DNA from: Candidatus Woesearchaeota archaeon
Lineage (GTDB): Archaea > Nanobdellota > Nanobdellia > Woesearchaeales > SM23-78
Direction of reading: 5' to 3'
Assembly: GCA_019322375.1 (NCBI GenBank)
Contig: JAHWIP010000076.1
Span: forward strand, 1-32,000
Length of the DNA stretch: 32,000 nt
Part shown: positions 2,398 through 29,400 of the stretch, in pieces
Layout of the letters: every line of letters starts with the position of its first letter
Position numbering within the stretch: position 1 is the first letter of the stretch
Position numbers and translations under genes: made by a program
Notes under the pieces: generated by a model
Told to the model about the DNA's origin: nothing
The model's input: the letters and a program-made list of their open reading frames with translations, nothing else
The model's database searches: none

Positions 2398-2958
2398 ATG
2401 AAAAAATCAATCTTGTTCCTTTTGGCACTGCTCCTGGTGTCTAGTTTCTCCTTCCAATGCTGGGCTGGAACCTTCAAAATAGGGGCATCTGTGAACTACT
2501 ACCTCATCTCAGATCCTATCTTCAAAGAGCTCTACTCAAGCGGGGGCATGATGTTTGGTGGCTTTCTGAGCTTCTCGTATAAAATGTTCGAGCTAAGGAC
2601 TGAGTTCAACACTTTCCAGATGAATGGCAACATGAGCCTGACAGAAGAAGAAATCAAGTTCTCAATGACCCCGATTGTTGTAGGACTCCGGGTTTTTCTG
2701 CCTAACAAAACTGTTTCCCCATACCTGGGAGGTGGTCTTACTTACTGCTCTTACAAGGAGGAGCTTCCAGCACGTTTTGAGCCAGTGTCAGAATCAGTCA
2801 CTGGTTTTCATTTTGAATCTGGCAGTTACTTCATCTTGGCAAAGGGACTTCTCCTGGATCTCAATGTGCGGTATTCGAATTTAAATGCAGAATCCTTTGC
2901 AGATGATGTAAAGATTGGAGGAATCCGGGCAGGCCTTGGGGTTGGGTACAGATTCTGA
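2398..2958 (+). CDS. Small outer-membrane-protein-type beta-barrel protein (OMP_b-brl-like, 8-strand size class)
   Basis: It has a signal peptide (MKKSILFLLALLLVSSFSFQCWA) and alternating amphipathic strands. The C-terminus is GLGVGYRF, with a terminal aromatic Phe like the beta-signal of bacterial OMPs. A strong SD (AAAGGAGG) lies 8 nt upstream of the ATG. Confidence 0.6.
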   Translation: MKKSILFLLALLLVSSFSFQCWAGTFKIGASVNYYLISDPIFKELYSSGGMMFGGFLSFSYKMFELRTEFNTFQMNGNMSLTEEEIKFSMTPIVVGLRVFLPNKTVSPYLGGGLTYCSYKEELPARFEPVSESVTGFHFESGSYFILAKGLLLDLNVRYSNLNAESFADDVKIGGIRAGLGVGYRF

Positions 2959-5273: not shown

Positions 5274-7544
5274 TTAACCCTTAACCAACTCTCCTAACAA
5301 AAACTTCATCTCTACTATCATGTCCAGCTTTACTTCTTGAGGCACAAAGGTTGCTAAGGGCAGTATTTCTGCTTTTTTATAAAAACCCATGAAGAGTATT
5401 TTCATTAATAAAGGTATCTTTGATGCTCTGAGCCTCATGTTAAATATATTATTATCATATTCTTCTGGCAAGCCCAGTAAGGCTGCATATATTCTTTGTA
5501 TTCTTTCATATAATTCTTTATCATTAATTTCAGGTCTTTTGCTTGTATCATTTAACTCATTAATAAAGTTTTTAGCAACTTCTTCACTAATAGCAGGACT
5601 CTTTTTTCTTGACACCCTAATCTTTCTAAAGAGCTTGTTAGCTCCTACAAGGAATGCAAAGGTGGAGTTGTGTTCATACAATCCTCTTGCTTTCTCAGGA
5701 TGGGTTAGTAAGTAAAAGAAGTAGCTGATTAAAAGAAAGGGTATTAATCCTAGTATAATAAATAAGATTATAAACCCAGCATAATAAGCCTGGAAATAAT
5801 CACTAAAATTACATTTTCTGCAATTGCCACCGCAGTCAGCAAGTCTTTCATCACCATTCTTAACTCCATCATCACATCTTGGACAGGGCCTGCAAAGCCC
5901 TCCGCAATCAACACCCATCTCTCCGCCGTTCTGTACGCCATCAGAGCAAGTACCGCAACGCTTTGTACAAGGGCCACCGCAATCAACACCTTCCTCTTCC
6001 TGGTTCTTTATGCCATCTTCACAACTAGGAAAAGTGCATATAAGATACTCGCATCTTAAGCTCTCACAATCCTTGTTTTTTAAACAGCTCTGATTACCAG
6101 CACACCCAGCGCAAACACCTCCGCAATCAACATCACTTTCATCCTGGTTCTTAACACCATCAGTACAACTAGGACAGATTTCAAGGCATGGGCCCCCGCA
6201 ATCAACACCTTCTTCTCCCTGGTTCTGAATACTGTCATTACAGGTTGGACAAGGGTCGCATGGACCCCCGCAATCAACACCTTCTTCAATGCCGTTCTTT
6301 AAGCCATCAGAGCAAGTAGCATTGTACTCACATATTCTTATTTCATCTGGCTTGCTCCTGTTATCACCGCAATTAGCTATGTCTGTACAGTTCCTGGTCA
6401 TAAACCCTCCTGGCATACAAGGACCCCAGTCAGAGCAGTTCCAGTCAGGCATGCATCCTATTTCCTCGTCTTCGCATGGACCGCAATCAAAAGGGCAATT
6501 AGAGCAGTCTTCTACTGCACTGCAAACATAATCACCGCAGAAATCTGTTCTAGAAACATTCTTAAGAGTGTTAAATTTATCAGAACTAACAACATCCACT
6601 TTCACAAAGTTGCTTTCAACACTCTTATTCATAATATCATAAGCTGTGAAAACAAAATAAGCATATCCACTGGTATTAAGAGCAGGGTCATAGGTTACAA
6701 AGCCGGTTTTGTCAATGCTCGCACTAATATTTGCATAAGCTGTTCCTTTGATTTCAAAAGCAGGATTGACTTGTCTGTAAGAGAAACTCAGCATTCCGCC
6801 GTCAGGGTCATAAAAATAGTCATTAAGATTATAAGCACCTGTGGCTGTGTTCTGGAAAACCATGAAGTTAGGAACAGGGAATAGCAATGTTGGTGCCCGG
6901 TTTACCTTTGACACCTGCACATACCATGTTTTTATATCTGAAAGGTTATGAGAATCAGTCACTCTTGCACTAATATTGTGAACCCCTGATAATTCATATC
7001 CTGGCCTGAAAATATAATTAGTCTTATTAAATGATTCATTTATTAATCCAGAATCAAGAAGCCACTCATAGATAAGAGTTTCATTATCATCCTTGTCAAT
7101 TGCTTTTACCCTGAAATAAACAGATTGTGTCTGGTTAATCTGAACAGAAGAGTTCTTTGGCTCAAAAGAAGTAATCTTAGGTTTGGCAAAGATTTTAAAA
7201 GTTACTACCAGGGTGCCTGCGCATGACTCCTTAACAGCTATCACCCCTATTTTTGAAACTCCAACATCATCACTGCTAGGCTCAAATCTAAGAACACCAC
7301 CACTACTAATACTTATGCCTGTTAGTCTCCTGTCAAACAAGGCATAAGAATAAAATATTCCCTGCTCATCCATGTTAGTAAGATTAAAATCATGCACAAA
7401 GAGTTCGCCTTCTCCTATCTCAAAATAATTAATAGGATTAATTCTAGGCGTATCAGTAGAGGTGCAGACACCAGAGGAAAAGCCTATATTTATTAATAAG
7501 AAAAATAATACTAATACAACTACCATAGAGGCTTTTTTGTTCAC
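5274..7544 (-). CDS. Type-I membrane surface protein: signal peptide, PKD/cadherin-like Ig domains, Cys-rich modules, one TM helix, and a ~140-aa cytoplasmic domain
   Basis: It has a GTG start and a signal peptide (MNKKASMVVVLVLFFLLINIGFSSG). A PKD-like segment is IYEWLLDSG...GVHNISARVTDSHN...WYVQV, and a cadherin-like segment is YNLNDYFYDPDGGMLSFSY. Residues 336-578 are extremely Cys-rich. The TM helix is aa ~586-614 (YYAGFIILFIILGLIPFLLISYFFYLL). There are many N-x-S/T sequons. Confidence 0.8.
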   Translation of the reverse strand: MNKKASMVVVLVLFFLLINIGFSSGVCTSTDTPRINPINYFEIGEGELFVHDFNLTNMDEQGIFYSYALFDRRLTGISISSGGVLRFEPSSDDVGVSKIGVIAVKESCAGTLVVTFKIFAKPKITSFEPKNSSVQINQTQSVYFRVKAIDKDDNETLIYEWLLDSGLINESFNKTNYIFRPGYELSGVHNISARVTDSHNLSDIKTWYVQVSKVNRAPTLLFPVPNFMVFQNTATGAYNLNDYFYDPDGGMLSFSYRQVNPAFEIKGTAYANISASIDKTGFVTYDPALNTSGYAYFVFTAYDIMNKSVESNFVKVDVVSSDKFNTLKNVSRTDFCGDYVCSAVEDCSNCPFDCGPCEDEEIGCMPDWNCSDWGPCMPGGFMTRNCTDIANCGDNRSKPDEIRICEYNATCSDGLKNGIEEGVDCGGPCDPCPTCNDSIQNQGEEGVDCGGPCLEICPSCTDGVKNQDESDVDCGGVCAGCAGNQSCLKNKDCESLRCEYLICTFPSCEDGIKNQEEEGVDCGGPCTKRCGTCSDGVQNGGEMGVDCGGLCRPCPRCDDGVKNGDERLADCGGNCRKCNFSDYFQAYYAGFIILFIILGLIPFLLISYFFYLLTHPEKARGLYEHNSTFAFLVGANKLFRKIRVSRKKSPAISEEVAKNFINELNDTSKRPEINDKELYERIQRIYAALLGLPEEYDNNIFNMRLRASKIPLLMKILFMGFYKKAEILPLATFVPQEVKLDMIVEMKFLLGELVKG
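5811..6314 (-). repeat. Six tandem ~25-aa four-Cys modules, C-x-D-G/S-x-x-N-x-x-E-x-x-x-D-C-G-G-x-C-x-x-C, coding and inside the 5274-7544 CDS
   Basis: The protein copies are CSDGLKNGIEEGVDCGGPCDPC, CNDSIQNQGEEGVDCGGPCLEIC, CTDGVKNQDESDVDCGGVCAGC, CEDGIKNQEEEGVDCGGPCTKRC, CSDGVQNGGEMGVDCGGLCRPC and CDDGVKNGDERLADCGGNCRKC. At DNA level the recurring plus-strand core is CC(N)CCGCAATCAACACC. Confidence 0.85.
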
Positions 7545-7725: not shown

Positions 7726-10434
7726 ATGCCTTCTGATGAAGTGATAAAGCATTTTGCTAGTTCTGAGGATAATGGCTTGACTAGCAAAGAGGTTGAGTTC
7801 AGGCTTAAGAAGTTTGGCAGGAACAAGCTGGCTGCGAAAAAAAAAGTTACTATTCTGCACAGGTTCATCAACCAGTTCAAGGAGTTAATGATTATCATCT
7901 TAATACTGGCTGGTGTTATTGCTTTTATTCTTGGAGAAAGCATTGATGCAGGCATTATATTCTTTGTTGTGCTTGTTAATGCAGTCATAGGTGTGCTTCA
8001 GGAGTACAAAGCAGAAAAAGCTATTGAAGCCCTGAAAAAAATGATGACTCCTCATGCAACTATTCTTAGGAATGGAATAGAAAAAGTGATTAATGCAGAG
8101 GAGCTTGTTCCAGGCGACATCCTGATTCTTGAAGAAGGCACGCGTGCACCAGCAGATGCAAGAATAATAGAGGCTGCTATGCTCAAAGTGGATGAAGCTG
8201 TTCTTACAGGAGAAAGCGTGCCCAGAGGCAAGCATGAAGCAGTAATAGAAAAAGAAAATATTGCTCTGGGCGACAGGAATAACATGCTCTTCATGGGCAC
8301 CAACATCACCAGCGGCAGGTGCAAGGCAGTTGTTACTGCCACTGGCATGAGCACAGAGTTTGGAAAAATAGCAGGTTTAACAGCAGAGATAAAAGAGGAG
8401 AAAAGCCCGCTTCAGAAAGAGCTTGTAAGGGTTGGCAAGTTCATTGCAAAAGTTACTCTGGGAATAGTGATAATAGTTTTCTTTCTTGGACTGCTCAGCG
8501 GGCAGGGCTTGTTTGTCATGTTCTTGTTTGCAGTCAGCCTTGGAGTGGCTGCTGTTCCAGAAGGCCTGCCAGCAACCATGACCATAGCCCTTGCTTTGGG
8601 TGTGCGAAGAATGGCAAAGAGAAAGGCTATTATGAGAAAGCTTTCAAGTGTTGAGACTCTTGGAAGCACCACAGTGATTTGCACTGACAAGACAGGCACT
8701 CTTACCAAGAACGAGATGACTGTTAAGCAGATATGGGTTAATAATAAAAATATATATATCCAGGGAGAAGGTTATGAGCCAGCAGGAGGCTTTCTTTATA
8801 ATAACAAGGATTATTCTGATGATGTTCTTAGGAAGATGCTAAGATGCGGATTACTGTGCAACAATGCTGTTCTTCAAAAAGACTCTGATAACAAGGATAA
8901 ATGGGTGATTGTGGGTGACCCTACTGAAGGCGCGCTTGTGGTTAGTGCAAAAAAAACAGGGCTTGAGCAGAAAAAAGAAGAAGAAACTTATGATCGGGTG
9001 TTTGAGATTCCTTTTAGCAGTGATGCCAAGCGCATGATAACCATTAACAAGGATGAAGCACGCAAAAGCAAGGACAGAAAAGGCTTAACTGCTTATATGA
9101 AAGGAGCAACAGGGGTTATCCTTGATAAATGTTCTTATATAGAAGTTGATGGCAAGGTAAAAAAGCTTAGTGAAAAGCAAAAAGAGGATATCAAGGTTGT
9201 TAGCAGGCAGATGTCTGAACAAGCTTTAAGAGTGCTGGGCTTTGCTTATAAAACATTAAAAGGCAAAGAGCAGGAAGAAAATAATTACAAGAAAATTAAG
9301 GAACAAGATTTTGTGTTCTTAGGCTTGCAAGGAATGATAGACCCTCCAAGGCAGGAAGTAAAGGATGCTGTTGCCAAGTGCAGAAAAGCAGGCATAAAGA
9401 TTTATGTAGTGACTGGCGACCATGGCTTGACAGCAAGAGCAATAGCAAAGGAGATAGGAATAGCAACTGATAATACCAGGATTATCAAAGGGCCAGAGCT
9501 TGAAAAGATGAATGATCAGGCTCTTAGCATTGCTATGAGGGAAGAAGTAATCTTTGCAAGGGTTAGTCCTGAGCACAAGATGAGAATAGCAAGCCTGCTC
9601 ATGAGCCATGGCGAAGTTGTTGCTATGACAGGCGATGGTGTGAATGATGCTCCTGCCCTGAAAAAAGCAGATATAGGCGTGGCCATGGGCATAACAGGAA
9701 CAGATGTGAGCAAGGAAGCCAGTGAAATGGTGCTAACAGATGACTCTTTTGCAACCATTGTTAATGCTGTGGAGGAGGGAAGAAGCATTTACTCAAATAT
9801 TACCAAATTTATAAGGTATATGTTCTCAACTAATCTAGGAGAGATAATAGCTATTCTGTTAGGAATGCTTTTAATACCTGTTTTCTTAAAAGAAAAAGGA
9901 ATAGTGCTCATAGTCACAGCTGTTCAGATACTATGGATTAACCTGGGAACAGATGTGCTGCCAGCCCTGGCCCTGGGAGTTGAGCCTCCAGAGCAGGGGG
10001 TTATGAATAAGCCTCCTAGAAACCCAAGAGAAAGAATAATTAGTTCCAAGCGCTTTGCACACTGGCTAATGACAGGCTTAATCATAGGCATTGGAACCCT
10101 TGCAATGTTTTTGATGAACAGTGATGAACCTTTAAAAGCAAGAACCATGGCTTTCTCTGTGCTAGTCTTCTATCAGCTAGCAAATGTGTTTAACTGCAGA
10201 CATGAGACTAAATCATTGTTTCATATAAAACTGTTCTCTAATAAATATATCATTTGGGCTGTGCTTGTGTCACTAGTGCTCCAGATAGCAGTTATACAGG
10301 TGCCTTTGCTGCAAAAAGTCTTTAAGACCATGGCTCTTTCATTATTTGAATGGGGGGCTGTGGTGCTGCTAAGCCTGACAATAATTATCTATGATGAAAT
10401 AAGAAAGGTGTTTGCAAGAAAGCATATGCGTTAA
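7726..10434 (+). CDS. P2-type cation-transporting ATPase (Ca2+-ATPase-like, SERCA/PMCA class)
   Basis: Motifs present are TGES, VPEGLPATMTIALALG (TM4), the phosphorylation site ICTDKTGTLT, the KGA nucleotide-site motif, and the hinge MTGDGVNDAPALKKADIGVAMG. I place the start at the ATG (MPSDEVIKHF...GLTSKEVEFRLKKFGRNKL) rather than the GTG at 7705 used by the ORF track. Confidence 0.9.
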   Translation: MPSDEVIKHFASSEDNGLTSKEVEFRLKKFGRNKLAAKKKVTILHRFINQFKELMIIILILAGVIAFILGESIDAGIIFFVVLVNAVIGVLQEYKAEKAIEALKKMMTPHATILRNGIEKVINAEELVPGDILILEEGTRAPADARIIEAAMLKVDEAVLTGESVPRGKHEAVIEKENIALGDRNNMLFMGTNITSGRCKAVVTATGMSTEFGKIAGLTAEIKEEKSPLQKELVRVGKFIAKVTLGIVIIVFFLGLLSGQGLFVMFLFAVSLGVAAVPEGLPATMTIALALGVRRMAKRKAIMRKLSSVETLGSTTVICTDKTGTLTKNEMTVKQIWVNNKNIYIQGEGYEPAGGFLYNNKDYSDDVLRKMLRCGLLCNNAVLQKDSDNKDKWVIVGDPTEGALVVSAKKTGLEQKKEEETYDRVFEIPFSSDAKRMITINKDEARKSKDRKGLTAYMKGATGVILDKCSYIEVDGKVKKLSEKQKEDIKVVSRQMSEQALRVLGFAYKTLKGKEQEENNYKKIKEQDFVFLGLQGMIDPPRQEVKDAVAKCRKAGIKIYVVTGDHGLTARAIAKEIGIATDNTRIIKGPELEKMNDQALSIAMREEVIFARVSPEHKMRIASLLMSHGEVVAMTGDGVNDAPALKKADIGVAMGITGTDVSKEASEMVLTDDSFATIVNAVEEGRSIYSNITKFIRYMFSTNLGEIIAILLGMLLIPVFLKEKGIVLIVTAVQILWINLGTDVLPALALGVEPPEQGVMNKPPRNPRERIISSKRFAHWLMTGLIIGIGTLAMFLMNSDEPLKARTMAFSVLVFYQLANVFNCRHETKSLFHIKLFSNKYIIWAVLVSLVLQIAVIQVPLLQKVFKTMALSLFEWGAVVLLSLTIIIYDEIRKVFARKHMR

Positions 10435-24168: not shown

Positions 24169-24408
24169 CTAATCCTTAACAACCCCCCGATAATATATTA
24201 TCTCGCCAGCAGTCCTGCTCTTACGCTTAATCATAACAATATCCCCTTCCTTAACACTGAGATGAGCTATTGCTGGATCAGAAACATTAATTTTAGGAAT
24301 CTCCCTGATAGAGACCTTATAATCTTTTAGCAAAGCCTTTGCTTCTTTATCAGAGAGCTTGATATGCTCAGGAATAAGGTCGTGTTTGAGTTGAGATTTT
24401 CGTGTCAT
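24169..24408 (-). CDS. rpoH: DNA-directed RNA polymerase subunit H (Rpo5)
   Basis: HDLIPEHIKLSDKEAKALLKDYKVSIREIPKINVSDPAIAHLSVKEGDIVMIKRKSRTAGEIIYYRGVV is the classic RpoH sequence. I set the start at the internal ATG (MTRKS) because the ORF-track extension to 24459 runs into the tRNA-Lys gene. Confidence 0.9.
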   Translation of the reverse strand: MTRKSQLKHDLIPEHIKLSDKEAKALLKDYKVSIREIPKINVSDPAIAHLSVKEGDIVMIKRKSRTAGEIIYYRGVVKD

Positions 24409-24428
24409 TTTAATCTGAAATGTATACA

Positions 24429-24583
24429 TGGGCCGGACGAGACAGTCAGAAAAACTCACATTTTTCCGGGTGATAAACGCAGTTTCTCATTTGAACTCGC
24501 GACCACACGATGACTTCCTGATTTAAAAGTCGTGTGCTCTAGTTCCCAAGCCACAAAGGCTTACCGGACTGAGCTACCGGCCC
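24429..24583 (-). tRNA. tRNA-Lys(UUU) with three intron-like insertions (D-loop, anticodon loop 37/38, T-loop), 155 nt
   Basis: The minus strand reads GGGCCGG-TA-GCTC-[31 nt where 8-11 are expected]-GAGC-A-CACGA-CTTTTA[AATCAGGAAGTC]A-TCGTG-TGGTC-GCGAG-TTCAAAT-[47 nt]-CTCGT-CCGGCCC-A. All four stems pair. For the 12-nt anticodon intron, loop nt CTTT can pair with intron GAAG, leaving 3-nt bulges at both junctions. CCA is not encoded. Confidence 0.8.
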
Positions 24584-24586
24584 ATA

Positions 24587-24735
24587 CGCCCTGGCCGGGA
24601 TTCGAACCCGGGTCGAAGCCTATCCACGACTTTAATCATTGATTGTGAATGATTATTAGTTCTCGACAGGGCTTCATGATAGTTACTGCAACAAAACAAG
24701 GTTTGTTTTGCTGAACCAGGCTACACTACCAGGGC
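24587..24735 (-). tRNA. tRNA-Asp(GUC) with two introns (D-loop ~33 nt, anticodon 37/38 ~42 nt), 149 nt
   Basis: The minus strand reads GCCCTGG-TA-GTGT-[43 nt D region containing hairpin CAAAACAA-ACC-TTGTTTTG]-TCAT-G-AAGCC-CTGTCG[42 nt containing AATCATT-CACAATC-AATGATT]A-GGCTT-CGAC-CCGGG-TTCGAAT-CCCGG-CCAGGGC-G. Only 3 nt separate it from tRNA-Lys. Confidence 0.8.
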
Positions 24736-24933
24736 ATCGCATACTTAATCATGAAGCAAATTGAAGTGAATAAAAGAGCAGTGGCTCGTAAATGCGTTTG
24801 TATTACCTTTCTAGAACCCTCCTGCCCTTAAAAACATTTTATTCCAGCTCATATTTCCCTGCTAATAATGATATGAGTATAGCTAACAATATATTATTAA
24901 TACTGAATACAAGCAAAGAAGGTGGATAACCAT

Positions 24934-26254: not shown

Positions 26255-26407
26255 TCCCCGCGCCCGGACATTCAGAAAAACCGTAATCCCAGCTTCTCGT
26301 TTGAACCAGGAACCTCTCGGGAACAGCTGATCGTGTATCATTTCCAGCCAGCCGGCTTCTCAACACGATATCTACAGCCGAGCGCTCTGCCGTTGAGCTA
26401 CGCGGGG
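26255..26407 (-). tRNA. tRNA-Tyr(GUA) with two introns (anticodon region ~50 nt, T-loop 31 nt), 153 nt
   Basis: The minus strand reads CCCCGCG-TA-GCTC-AACGGCA-GAGC-G-CTCGG-CTGTAG(A)[~50 nt containing ATCGTGT...ACACGAT]-CCGAG-AGGTT-CCTGG-TTCAAAC-[GAGAAGCTGGGATTACGGTTTTTCTGAATGT]-CCGGG-CGCGGGG-A. The C1:G72 pair is the archaeal/eukaryal tRNA-Tyr identity pair. The ORF-track entry 26184..26489 overlaps this gene and is spurious. Confidence 0.8.
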
Positions 26408-29281: not shown

Positions 29282-29400
29282 TGGGGCTGCGAGGATTTGA
29301 ACCCCGGTTTCCAGCTGTCCGTTTCATTGATAAGCATGAGTTGGCATGCCATTCTCACGAACCCCGAGCTGGGGTGATGGCCAAACTACACTACAGCCCC
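29282..29400 (-). tRNA. Intron-containing tRNA, most parsimoniously tRNA-Pro (GGG by canonical 37/38 splicing). The isotype is uncertain.
   Basis: The minus strand reads GGGGCTG-TA-GTGT-AGTTTGGCCA-TCAC-C-CCAGC-TCGGGG[45 nt]A-GCTGG-AAAC-CGGGG-TTCAAAT-CCTCG-CAGCCCC-A. The stems are good and the T-loop is canonical. G1-G3:C70-C72 plus A73 and G35/G36 fit archaeal tRNA-Pro identity rules. However, the spliced loop would be UCGGGGA, with C rather than U at position 33. Confidence 0.55.

Follow-up and report, generated by a model that had tools for sequence, protein, structure and literature searches.

A family of short introns at position 59/60 of the T-loop in tRNA genes of a Woesearchaeota-type archaeon and its relatives

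A stretch of 32,000 nucleotides (nt) from a Candidatus Woesearchaeota archaeon (assembly GCA_019322375.1, contig JAHWIP010000076.1, positions 1–32,000; hereafter the window, by which the whole stretch is meant) was analyzed with a focus on insertions in the T-loops of its tRNA-Lys and tRNA-Tyr genes. The closest match of the RpoB'' protein encoded in the window was the one from 'Euryarchaeota archaeon SM23-78' (91% identity), followed by matches labelled Woesearchaeota, Nanoarchaeota or Nanoarchaeia; the host is an uncultured DPANN archaeon of the Woesearchaeota/Nanoarchaeota type. The minus strand of the window contains an RNA polymerase operon with the gene order rpoH-rpoB''-rpoB'-rpoA'-rpoA'', followed by genes for L7Ae/L30e, NusA-KH and S12. 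The genes for tRNA-Asp and tRNA-Lys are located directly upstream of rpoH, and the tRNA-Tyr gene is located 1.7 kb farther upstream.

The tRNA-Lys(UUU) gene (24429–24583, minus strand; precursor of 155 nt, no encoded CCA) begins 3 nt downstream of the tRNA-Asp gene and ends about 20 nt upstream of rpoH. It was modeled using a stem-pairing scanner applied to the acceptor and the T-arm and contains three introns, one of which interrupts the T-loop between positions 59 and 60 (24443–24489, minus strand, 47 nt; placed using the covariance model R2, described below, and the fold). This intron is a full-length member of the family considered here and consists of a U, an h' hairpin (GAGAAACUGCGUUU paired with AAAUGU-G-AGUUUUUC, with one bulged G), the segment H2 UGAC and a terminal UG. 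The adjoining exon part (24490–24500, minus strand), assigned from pair counts on the alignment and from the cmsearch alignment, comprises the T-loop nucleotides U54–A59 (24490–24495) and the 5' strand of the T-stem (24496–24500). Nucleotides U54–A57 are the exon half (H1) of the central helix of a bulge–helix–bulge (BHB) motif, the 5' bulge of which starts with A58 and A59. On the other side of the intron (24437–24442, minus strand) lie U60 (24442), which is the third nucleotide of the 3' bulge, and the 3' strand of the T-stem (24437–24441). The tRNA-Tyr(GUA) gene (26255–26407, minus strand; precursor of 153 nt) contains two introns. Its T-loop intron, also at 59/60 (26269–26299, minus strand, 31 nt; placed using R2 and the minimum-free-energy fold), is an internally deleted member composed of a C, a GAGAAGCUG/CGGUUUUUC hairpin, H2 UGAA and a terminal UG.

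These two insertions had been noticed in a sequence-only reading of the window, which described them as homologous introns with shared, mutually pairing ends at the same T-loop position. Both strings were located on the minus strand, at 24442–24488 (47 nt) and 26268–26298 (31 nt), although the coordinates given for them (24439–24485 and 26266–26296) were off by 3 and 2 nt. The pattern GAGAARCTG..GTTTTTCTGAMTGT matches the window in exactly these two places (0.00 expected from 100 shuffles), the flank-free core GAGAARC..GTTTTTC matches the same two places only (0.06 expected), and both insertions come after TTCAAA. The termini can pair as had been supposed, and the A-to-G change is found at the sixth pair of the helix (alignment columns 18/47) as A-U in the Lys copy versus G-U in the Tyr copy. 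As for the homology itself, the alignment of the two introns scored better than 500 of 500 shuffles (z = 4.3), whereas unrelated 59/60 introns of the lineage compared with the window introns gave z = −0.2 to 1.8. Since these unrelated introns remain at z of about 0–2, the shared pairing constraint alone creates no similarity.

The covariance model R2 was built from 16 members, with the window excluded, and was run unfiltered over the whole window. Although it had never been shown the Lys and Tyr introns, it recognized both as one sequence family, with 62 bits (E ~4e-17) at the Lys site (24437–24500) and 50.1 bits (E ~2e-13) at the Tyr site (26263–26310); the next best match in the window reached 10.7 bits and the T-arm of the intron-less tRNA-Asp reached 9.9 bits. 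Two parts of the earlier description need to be modified. The shared termini had been taken as the signature of homology, but the common ...UGAMUG end is not free evidence of it because this end must pair with the universal U54–R57; the signal is carried by the h' helix and the loop. The Lys and Tyr introns do share a family, but they are probably not direct duplicates of each other: according to the z-scores of intron alignments, the Lys copy is closest to the intron of the SM23-78 tRNA-Leu and the Tyr copy is an internally deleted member, so direct duplication was rejected in favor of common family membership.

The T-arm together with the insert was predicted to form an hBHBh' structure, i.e., a 5-bp T-stem, a 4-bp central helix, two 3-nt bulges and an intron hairpin. 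The central helix is formed by the intron UGAA with U54-U55-C56-R57 and is stacked between the T-stem and the h' hairpin, and the bulges are A58-A59-Y and U-G-U60. The minimum-free-energy fold of the Tyr copy is an exact 5-bp/3-nt/4-bp/3-nt/9-bp hBHBh', which is the strict motif, and that of the family consensus is 5 bp/3 nt/4 bp/3 nt/hairpin. In the 14-member alignment, 97% of cells pair and eight pairs show compensatory double changes; none of 500 shuffles reached the observed values, and in slid registers pairing dropped to 38–65%. In addition, the host T-stems differ and covary at four of the five pairs while the intron stays conserved.

Bulge geometry and the sequences of empty sites place the predicted splice junction at 59/60, which favors 59/60 over 60/61, the choice that the sequence-only reading had left to splice mapping. 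All five empty orthologous sites read TTCAAAT, which is the product of a 59/60 junction, whereas a 60/61 junction would yield TTCAAAC in about half of the hosts. At the occupied sites ...UG is followed by U except in the Leu copy, and about half of the inserts begin with C. According to this model, the splicing endonuclease EndA would cut after the second nucleotide of each bulge and an RtcB-type ligase would join A59 to U60, restoring UUCAAAU.

A search for further copies revealed the family in about 25 additional Woesearchaeota/Nanoarchaeota contigs (individual loci are denoted below by the letter L and a number), and in every case the intron was located at 59/60. A typical member is about 46 nt long and is arranged as Y-GAGAAACUGCGUUU-loop-AAACGCAGUUUUUC-UGAA-UG; the consensus, Y GAGAAACUGCGUUU-YUCACCCAGAA-AAACGCAGUUUUUC UGAA UG, contains a 14-bp hairpin with an 11-nt loop. 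A T-loop-anchored pattern was used to scan 185,579 species-representative genomes and gave 13 loci, 12 of which were genuine and belonged to metagenome-assembled genomes of the Woesearchaeota/Nanoarchaeota type (one of them labelled Methanosarcinales). The remaining locus, L012 from the bacterium Rummeliibacillus, was rejected as a chance match having neither internal similarity nor tRNA context. Note that the internal 30 nt, which had been left free by the pattern, were conserved among the 12 genuine loci. Metagenome contigs were scanned with a core pattern that placed no demand on the flanks, and 12 of the 37 matches had the internal sequence of the family, all of them inside GTTCRAAY...UGAxUG-U-(T-stem 3' strand); the other 25, lacking internal similarity and tRNA context, were discarded. 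Thus, within the available sample, the family is specific to position 59/60. Two scans of viral contigs (IMG/VR) yielded no genuine member, only one recurrent non-tRNA sequence and other chance matches, so there is no evidence for a viral vehicle.

The reliably identified hosts are the genes for tRNA-Ser (CGA, UGA, GGA and GCU), tRNA-Tyr, tRNA-Val (CAC and GAC), initiator tRNA-Met, tRNA-Pro(GGG), tRNA-Leu(GAG) and tRNA-Lys. The Leu(GAG) host belongs to SM23-78, the tRNA-Tyr of L033 holds a full-length 46-nt copy, and the host at L015, with the acceptor GGACCUG, was not assigned an isotype. On the sequence evidence, hosts other than the tRNA-Ser genes cannot share the intron through gene duplication. 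The Lys intron of the window is identical at 40 of 47 positions to that of the SM23-78 tRNA-Leu (z = 16.8), and it shows no similarity (z = 0.4) to the 21-nt intron at the orthologous site in the SM23-78 tRNA-Lys. Other relatives are also polymorphic here: the 59/60 site of tRNA-Lys, with 47 nt in the window, holds 21, 128, 86 or 0 nt in relatives with 86–91% RpoB'' identity. By contrast, the other two introns of this gene, in the D-loop and at 37/38, can still be recognized as orthologous among them. Pairs of occupied and empty sites were found for initiator Met, Ser-UGA, Ser-GCU, Pro and Lys, and the Ser-GCU genes of L050 and L060 differ by exactly a 46-nt insert. The introns of L020 and L023 are identical at 46 of 46 positions in spite of being located in different Ser isoacceptors of different species. 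Subtypes of the intron also cross tRNA identity, with 'UUUAU' occurring in the Lys copy of the window and the Leu copy of SM23-78, and 'UGUGUUGCUCACC' in the Pro copy of L014 and the Ser-GCU copy of L050. Finally, one site can be held by different families: the tRNA-Lys site contains the main family in the window and a second family in L004, and the tRNA-Ser(CGA) site contains the main family in L016 and another in L023.

In these comparisons of sites and sequences, the relations among the introns are incongruent with those among the tRNAs and the species, which indicates a non-vertical spread with rapid turnover. The earlier suggestion of gain by transposition or duplication rather than by descent is supported by the spread of the family over tRNAs of eight or more identity classes in related genomes and by the polymorphism of orthologous sites. 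At the tRNA-Lys site the closest relatives have either no intron or a different one, so that the Lys copy of the window probably arrived, or replaced another intron, in recent times; the Tyr copy is probably older, because a full-length copy is present in the tRNA-Tyr of L033.

Insertions at 59/60 are common in this lineage beyond the main family, being present in 9 of 24 bystander tRNAs, i.e., tRNAs that had not been used to fetch a locus. A second shared 59/60 family of 87–128 nt (CAACCUUUUCCGC..GCGCAAAACGUUGGCGAA..GGCGACUCCUAGUC) was observed in the tRNA-Lys of L004 (9487–9721) and in a tRNA of L014 with the acceptor AGCCCCG (6659–6901; z = 13.5), and the copy in L004 has a 46-nt internal insertion with a AAACUGCGUUUAU piece resembling the main family. 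A weaker third shared pair lies inside L023 (706–926 vs. 6444–6643, z = 4.0).

Given these data, the inserts are very probably protein-spliced BHB introns at 59/60 belonging to one family of about 46 nt that has spread non-vertically among the tRNA genes of Woesearchaeota-type DPANN archaea. Convergence would mean that independent introns look alike only through pairing with UUCR and the 3-nt bulges in an AT-rich genome. It would account for the 3' end UGAMUG, which is dictated by the U54–R57 pairing and the bulge geometry, and A/U-rich AAAAC...GUUUU hairpins are indeed common in other introns and leaders of the lineage. It is scarcely credible, however, against the conservation of the unconstrained h' helix and loop over about 25 copies, the R2 scores of 62 and 50 bits versus at most 10.7 bits elsewhere in the window, and the lack of similarity between the window introns and unrelated 59/60 introns under the same constraint. 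Purely vertical inheritance, i.e., an ancestral 59/60 intron with repeated loss and with similarity kept by descent and purifying selection, would agree with the near-identical Val-CAC copies in L021, L046, L048 and L059 and the initiator Met copies in L017 and L060. The Ser isoacceptors could also have come to share the intron through gene duplication, and the Tyr copies of the window and L033 may be orthologous. As an explanation of the whole family it is nevertheless very unlikely: the genes for tRNA-Lys, -Tyr, -Leu, -Val, -Pro and initiator Met are far older than the lineage, yet their introns are 85–100% identical; relatives with RpoB'' identity of about 90% have unrelated introns at the orthologous tRNA-Lys site, although the other introns of the gene are orthologous; and the intron subtypes cut across tRNA identity.

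The inserts might instead be unspliced palindromic DNA insertions similar to miniature inverted-repeat transposable elements (MITEs), which would have disrupted tRNA genes and left pseudogenes. A near-palindrome of about 46 bp that is non-coding, multi-copy and site-specific is what such an element would look like, and the genes in question are not called by standard tRNA finders. Several observations make this highly improbable. Comparison of occupied and empty sites revealed no target-site duplication of 2 nt or more; the G-U pair in the arms would turn into a C-A mismatch in the opposite strand; and the model scored 80–92 bits in the sense orientation versus 16–31 bits in the antisense one. 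The insert and exon together are predicted to fold into a textbook EndA substrate, the exons are intact, the T-stems covary with pairing kept in every host, and the tRNA-Asp/tRNA-Lys/rpoH order is conserved in five relatives. A MITE or a transposon of the insertion sequence (IS) type was accordingly rejected on the absence of a target-site duplication of at least 2 nt and the RNA-only G-U pairs in the arms. Other intron types were also considered and rejected, namely a self-splicing group I or II intron or a homing-endonuclease intron (the inserts are 31–47 nt long, have no open reading frame (ORF) and match no Rfam intron family) and a C/D-box small RNA (sRNA) intron (only CUGA is present, within the H2 pairing segment, with no C box and no Rfam snoRNA match here).

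Some points weigh against the interpretation as a mobile family of spliced introns or narrow its reach. The central helix of the Lys copy has only three of four pairs, because U54 faces a C and is left open by RNAfold; the Lys copy is therefore a relaxed rather than a strict substrate. The splicing itself, the precise junction and the mature tRNA products are deduced from sequence and predicted fold, and neither EndA nor RtcB is encoded within the 32,000-nt window. The Ser isoacceptors cannot be counted as independent transfers because their exons are related and gene duplication is possible. Because the searches for members used exact-match patterns taken from the window, the invariance of GAGAA / UUUUCUGA is partly a matter of ascertainment and diverged members are under-sampled; the copies of the window organism itself were counted within the window.

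The breadth of hosts of the non-vertically spread family may have an anatomical basis. The exon would supply any 5-bp T-stem, U54 U55 C56 R57, A58 A59 and U60, which are common to nearly all tRNAs, and the intron would supply the UGAA complement, both third-bulge positions and h'. Because the contribution of the exon is near-universal and the intron brings the remainder, the same intron would be splice-competent in any tRNA, and this likely explains, as far as can be judged from the anatomy, both the breadth of the family and its restriction to 59/60.

Regarding the route of transfer, it could be reverse splicing followed by recombination of the complementary DNA, or alternatively ectopic recombination or gene conversion between T-arms at the DNA level, with homology provided by the intron and by its nearly identical flanks, GGTTCRAA / TCCGG. 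The second route is quite possible, although we would put it at somewhat less than an even chance. Many hosts have the identical T-arm CCCGG-TTCAAA...T-CCGGG, different intron families replace each other at the tRNA-Lys and tRNA-Ser(CGA) sites, and no reverse transcriptase was seen in the window. On the other hand, gain at an empty site would have to rely on flank identity of about 8 + 5 nt, and on less for Lys (GCGAG) and initiator Met (GGTGG/GATGG), and identical copies in different species would require inter-genome transfer or strong selection. A bolder proposal sees the family as a mobile RNA element, active and non-autonomous, in which the excised and probably circularized BHB intron would re-insert into any tRNA T-loop by reversal of the EndA and RtcB reactions, become fixed in DNA and move between genes and species. 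We regard this as unlikely. If it were true, the conserved loop YUCACCCAGAA would act as a signal, e.g., one read by a host factor, and an occupied T-loop might shield tRNA genes from T-arm-targeting integrases.

The detection of these tRNA genes deserves a comment. On the raw window, ARAGORN called none of the four tRNA genes, and Rfam at its threshold found only the one at 29282–29400, missing three of the four; the gene models were therefore made by hand and with a custom stem-pairing scanner that requires acceptor and T-stem pairing. Once the proposed introns were removed from the Lys gene, ARAGORN recognized the 74-nt product as tRNA-Lys(ttt); removal of the T-loop insert from the Tyr gene gave a tRNA-Tyr(gta) carrying a canonical intron of 50 nt, i(37,50). 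ARAGORN isotypes proved unreliable in the presence of a second non-canonical intron (for tRNA-Asp it returned Arg, Thr, Ser or SeC, and the tRNAs of L021, L046 and L048 were miscalled), and isotype calls were accepted only with at most one intron remaining, together with a reading of the acceptor and anticodon by eye.

Apart from the T-loop intron, the tRNA-Lys gene contains a 22-nt D-loop intron (24542–24563, minus strand), the removal of which is required for the ARAGORN cloverleaf, and a canonical 12-nt 37/38 intron (24512–24523, minus strand; AAUCAGGAAGUC). The D-loop intron is recognizably orthologous in SM23-78 and L004 (AAGCCUUUG..GCUUGGGA), and its cut is ambiguous by 1–2 nt, with an identical mature sequence whichever option is taken. 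The second intron of tRNA-Tyr is the canonical 50-nt 37/38 intron (26322–26371, minus strand; ARAGORN i(37,50)), which, judging by its resembling ends, is probably orthologous to the canonical intron of the L033 tRNA-Tyr. The tRNA-Asp(GUC) gene (24587–24735, minus strand; its orthologue in L009 was called tRNA-Asp(gtc)) contains a D-loop intron and a canonical intron, and its uninterrupted T-loop served as an internal control.

The fourth tRNA (29282–29400, minus strand; Rfam tRNA score of 44.6 bits) has the acceptor GGGGCUG, an intron in the canonical region and an empty 59/60 site. It is probably tRNA-Pro(GGG), the isotype being taken from the ARAGORN call on L014; its orthologues in L014 (342–505) and L056 carry the family intron. 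A U is almost universal at tRNA position 33. In this tRNA, position 33 is C in every contiguous splicing model (anticodon loop UCGGGG|intron|A), which is conserved in two species and might reflect C-to-U editing or a genuinely unusual anticodon loop.

The spacer between tRNA-Asp and tRNA-Lys is only 2–3 nt (24584–24586 in the window, 9485–9486 in L004), and the tRNA-Asp/tRNA-Lys/rpoH arrangement is kept in five relatives, SM23-78 differing by a 65-nt spacer. This tight spacing implies that both tRNAs are co-transcribed with the operon and that their 5' and 3' ends are very tightly processed. The mechanically derived rpoH ORF (24169–24459, minus strand, GTG at 24459) runs into the tRNA-Lys gene including its T-loop intron, and the 101-aa rpoH call in L002 (4355–4660) likewise spans an undetected tRNA-Lys; the conserved 79-aa form starts near 24408 in the window. 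Thus, undetected multi-intron tRNAs lead to over-extended protein genes in annotations.

Just upstream of tRNA-Asp/tRNA-Lys/rpoH, a micro-ORF of 13–15 codons was observed (window 24772–24852, minus strand, MSWNKMFLRAGGF; consensus M-x3-K-x-FLRAGGF), which is also present in L001 (~9156–9240), L004 (~9175–9255), L007 (~300–390) and L008 (~9215–9305). The changes between relatives are of the synonymous type (AGG/AGA, TTG/TTA; stop TAG/TGA), and the 3' end of the micro-ORF (AGRGCAGG) can pair with a conserved downstream GAGCCMCUGCUCUUU that is followed by a T-run. By its sequence, the region looks like a leader peptide with a terminator-like hairpin before the RNA polymerase operon.

A stem-loop was found directly upstream of several tRNA-Ser and tRNA-Asp genes (L023 107–160 and 588–705; L001 9275–9372; L004 9280–9325; before tRNA-Ser in L016 and L022), one strand of which repeats the first 11–13 nt of the tRNA (e.g., GCCAGCGTCGCAT). 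The other strand is the complement, often broken by extra small hairpins. This stem-loop, which is absent before tRNA-Asp in the window, may be a leader structure, a rearrangement remnant or a processing signal. In addition, A/U-rich hairpin modules CAAAAC-N3-5-GUUUUG recur in introns, leaders and inter-tRNA spacers of the lineage, including the D-loop intron of tRNA-Asp in the window (within 24587–24735), L001 (9280–9350 and 9540–9580) and the introns of L004 and L009, and much of the difference in length among orthologous introns seems to be due to them. Elsewhere on the contig, an ORF at 2398–2958 (plus strand) encodes a bacterial outer-membrane beta-barrel domain (OMP_b-brl, E ~1e-10) and a 756-aa ORF at 5274–7544 (minus strand) encodes a bacterial Ig-like domain; on an archaeal contig, these could represent horizontal acquisition or surface proteins.

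As to how protein-spliced tRNA introns are gained, the only well-known evidence of transfer comes from Thermoproteales, and the family described here represents a second, independent case, in DPANN archaea. It is convenient for study in having one defined target site, a mechanistic reason for acceptance in every tRNA and, among close relatives, many natural alleles that are occupied, empty or replaced. In Thermoproteales, short BHB introns of near-identical sequence occur in unrelated tRNAs; they were inferred to have been gained recently, by transfer from one kind of tRNA gene to another, and the BHB motif is considered to determine the places at which an intron can be retained (Fujishima et al. 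2010, summarised in PMC4090602 and PMC4033280). The DPANN family resembles these clusters in the first two respects. As far as the reviews allow comparison, it differs from those of Thermoproteales (TACK) in its single site, 59/60, in the use of the universal T-loop as the exon partner and in identity of up to 46/46 across species. The scan of the 185,579 genomes gave no matches in Thermoproteales, and the DPANN family is analogous to, not a member of, the described clusters.

Introns at 59/60 are also known in another DPANN archaeon, ARMAN-2 (Candidatus Micrarchaeum acidiphilum), in which that of tRNA-Pro(GGG) has the strict hBHBh' form and the host EndA, an enzyme of the epsilon2 type, correctly cut a pre-tRNA-Cys bearing a 59/60 intron in vitro (PMC3239211). 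The ARMAN-2 introns are individual (e.g., 13 nt, relaxed hBH) and were not reported as a sequence family shared by several tRNAs (PMC3239211). The T-loop site, described earlier as rare, is uncommon overall although already on record, and in the present lineage it is common. Compared with canonical 37/38 BHB introns, the anatomy is the same, with a 5-bp stem, a 4-bp helix between loop nucleotides 1–4 and the 3' part of the intron, two 3-nt bulges and cleavage behind the second nucleotide of a bulge, so that 54–59/60 maps onto 32–37/38. Unlike the invariant exon half at 59/60, that of 37/38 introns differs between tRNAs; because it places the anticodon in the central helix, a 37/38 intron cannot move without re-adaptation. 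The C/D-box sRNA intron of euryarchaeal tRNA-Trp is similar in having a conserved intron sequence with CUGA near its 3' end, while the present introns have UGAGAAA instead of RUGAUGA, no C'/D' boxes and a length of 31–47 nt.

A marked rise in disrupted tRNA genes was described for DPANN lineages with the L3-loop EndA, the surveyed genomes including a Woesearchaeon (PMC5829648). A 2026 survey of 208 complete Nanobdellota genomes reported 26–54 tRNAs per genome with some isotypes 'missing' and invoked split tRNAs (bioRxiv 10.64898/2026.05.13.725050); a simpler candidate explanation is offered by tRNA genes that have several introns, one of them in the T-loop. The literature searched contained no account of this family, nor of the transfer of introns in Woesearchaeota. 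Within that literature the family, and its occurrence in this lineage, are new, while the kind of phenomenon, i.e., transferred tRNA introns as in Thermoproteales and 59/60 introns as in ARMAN-2, is already known.

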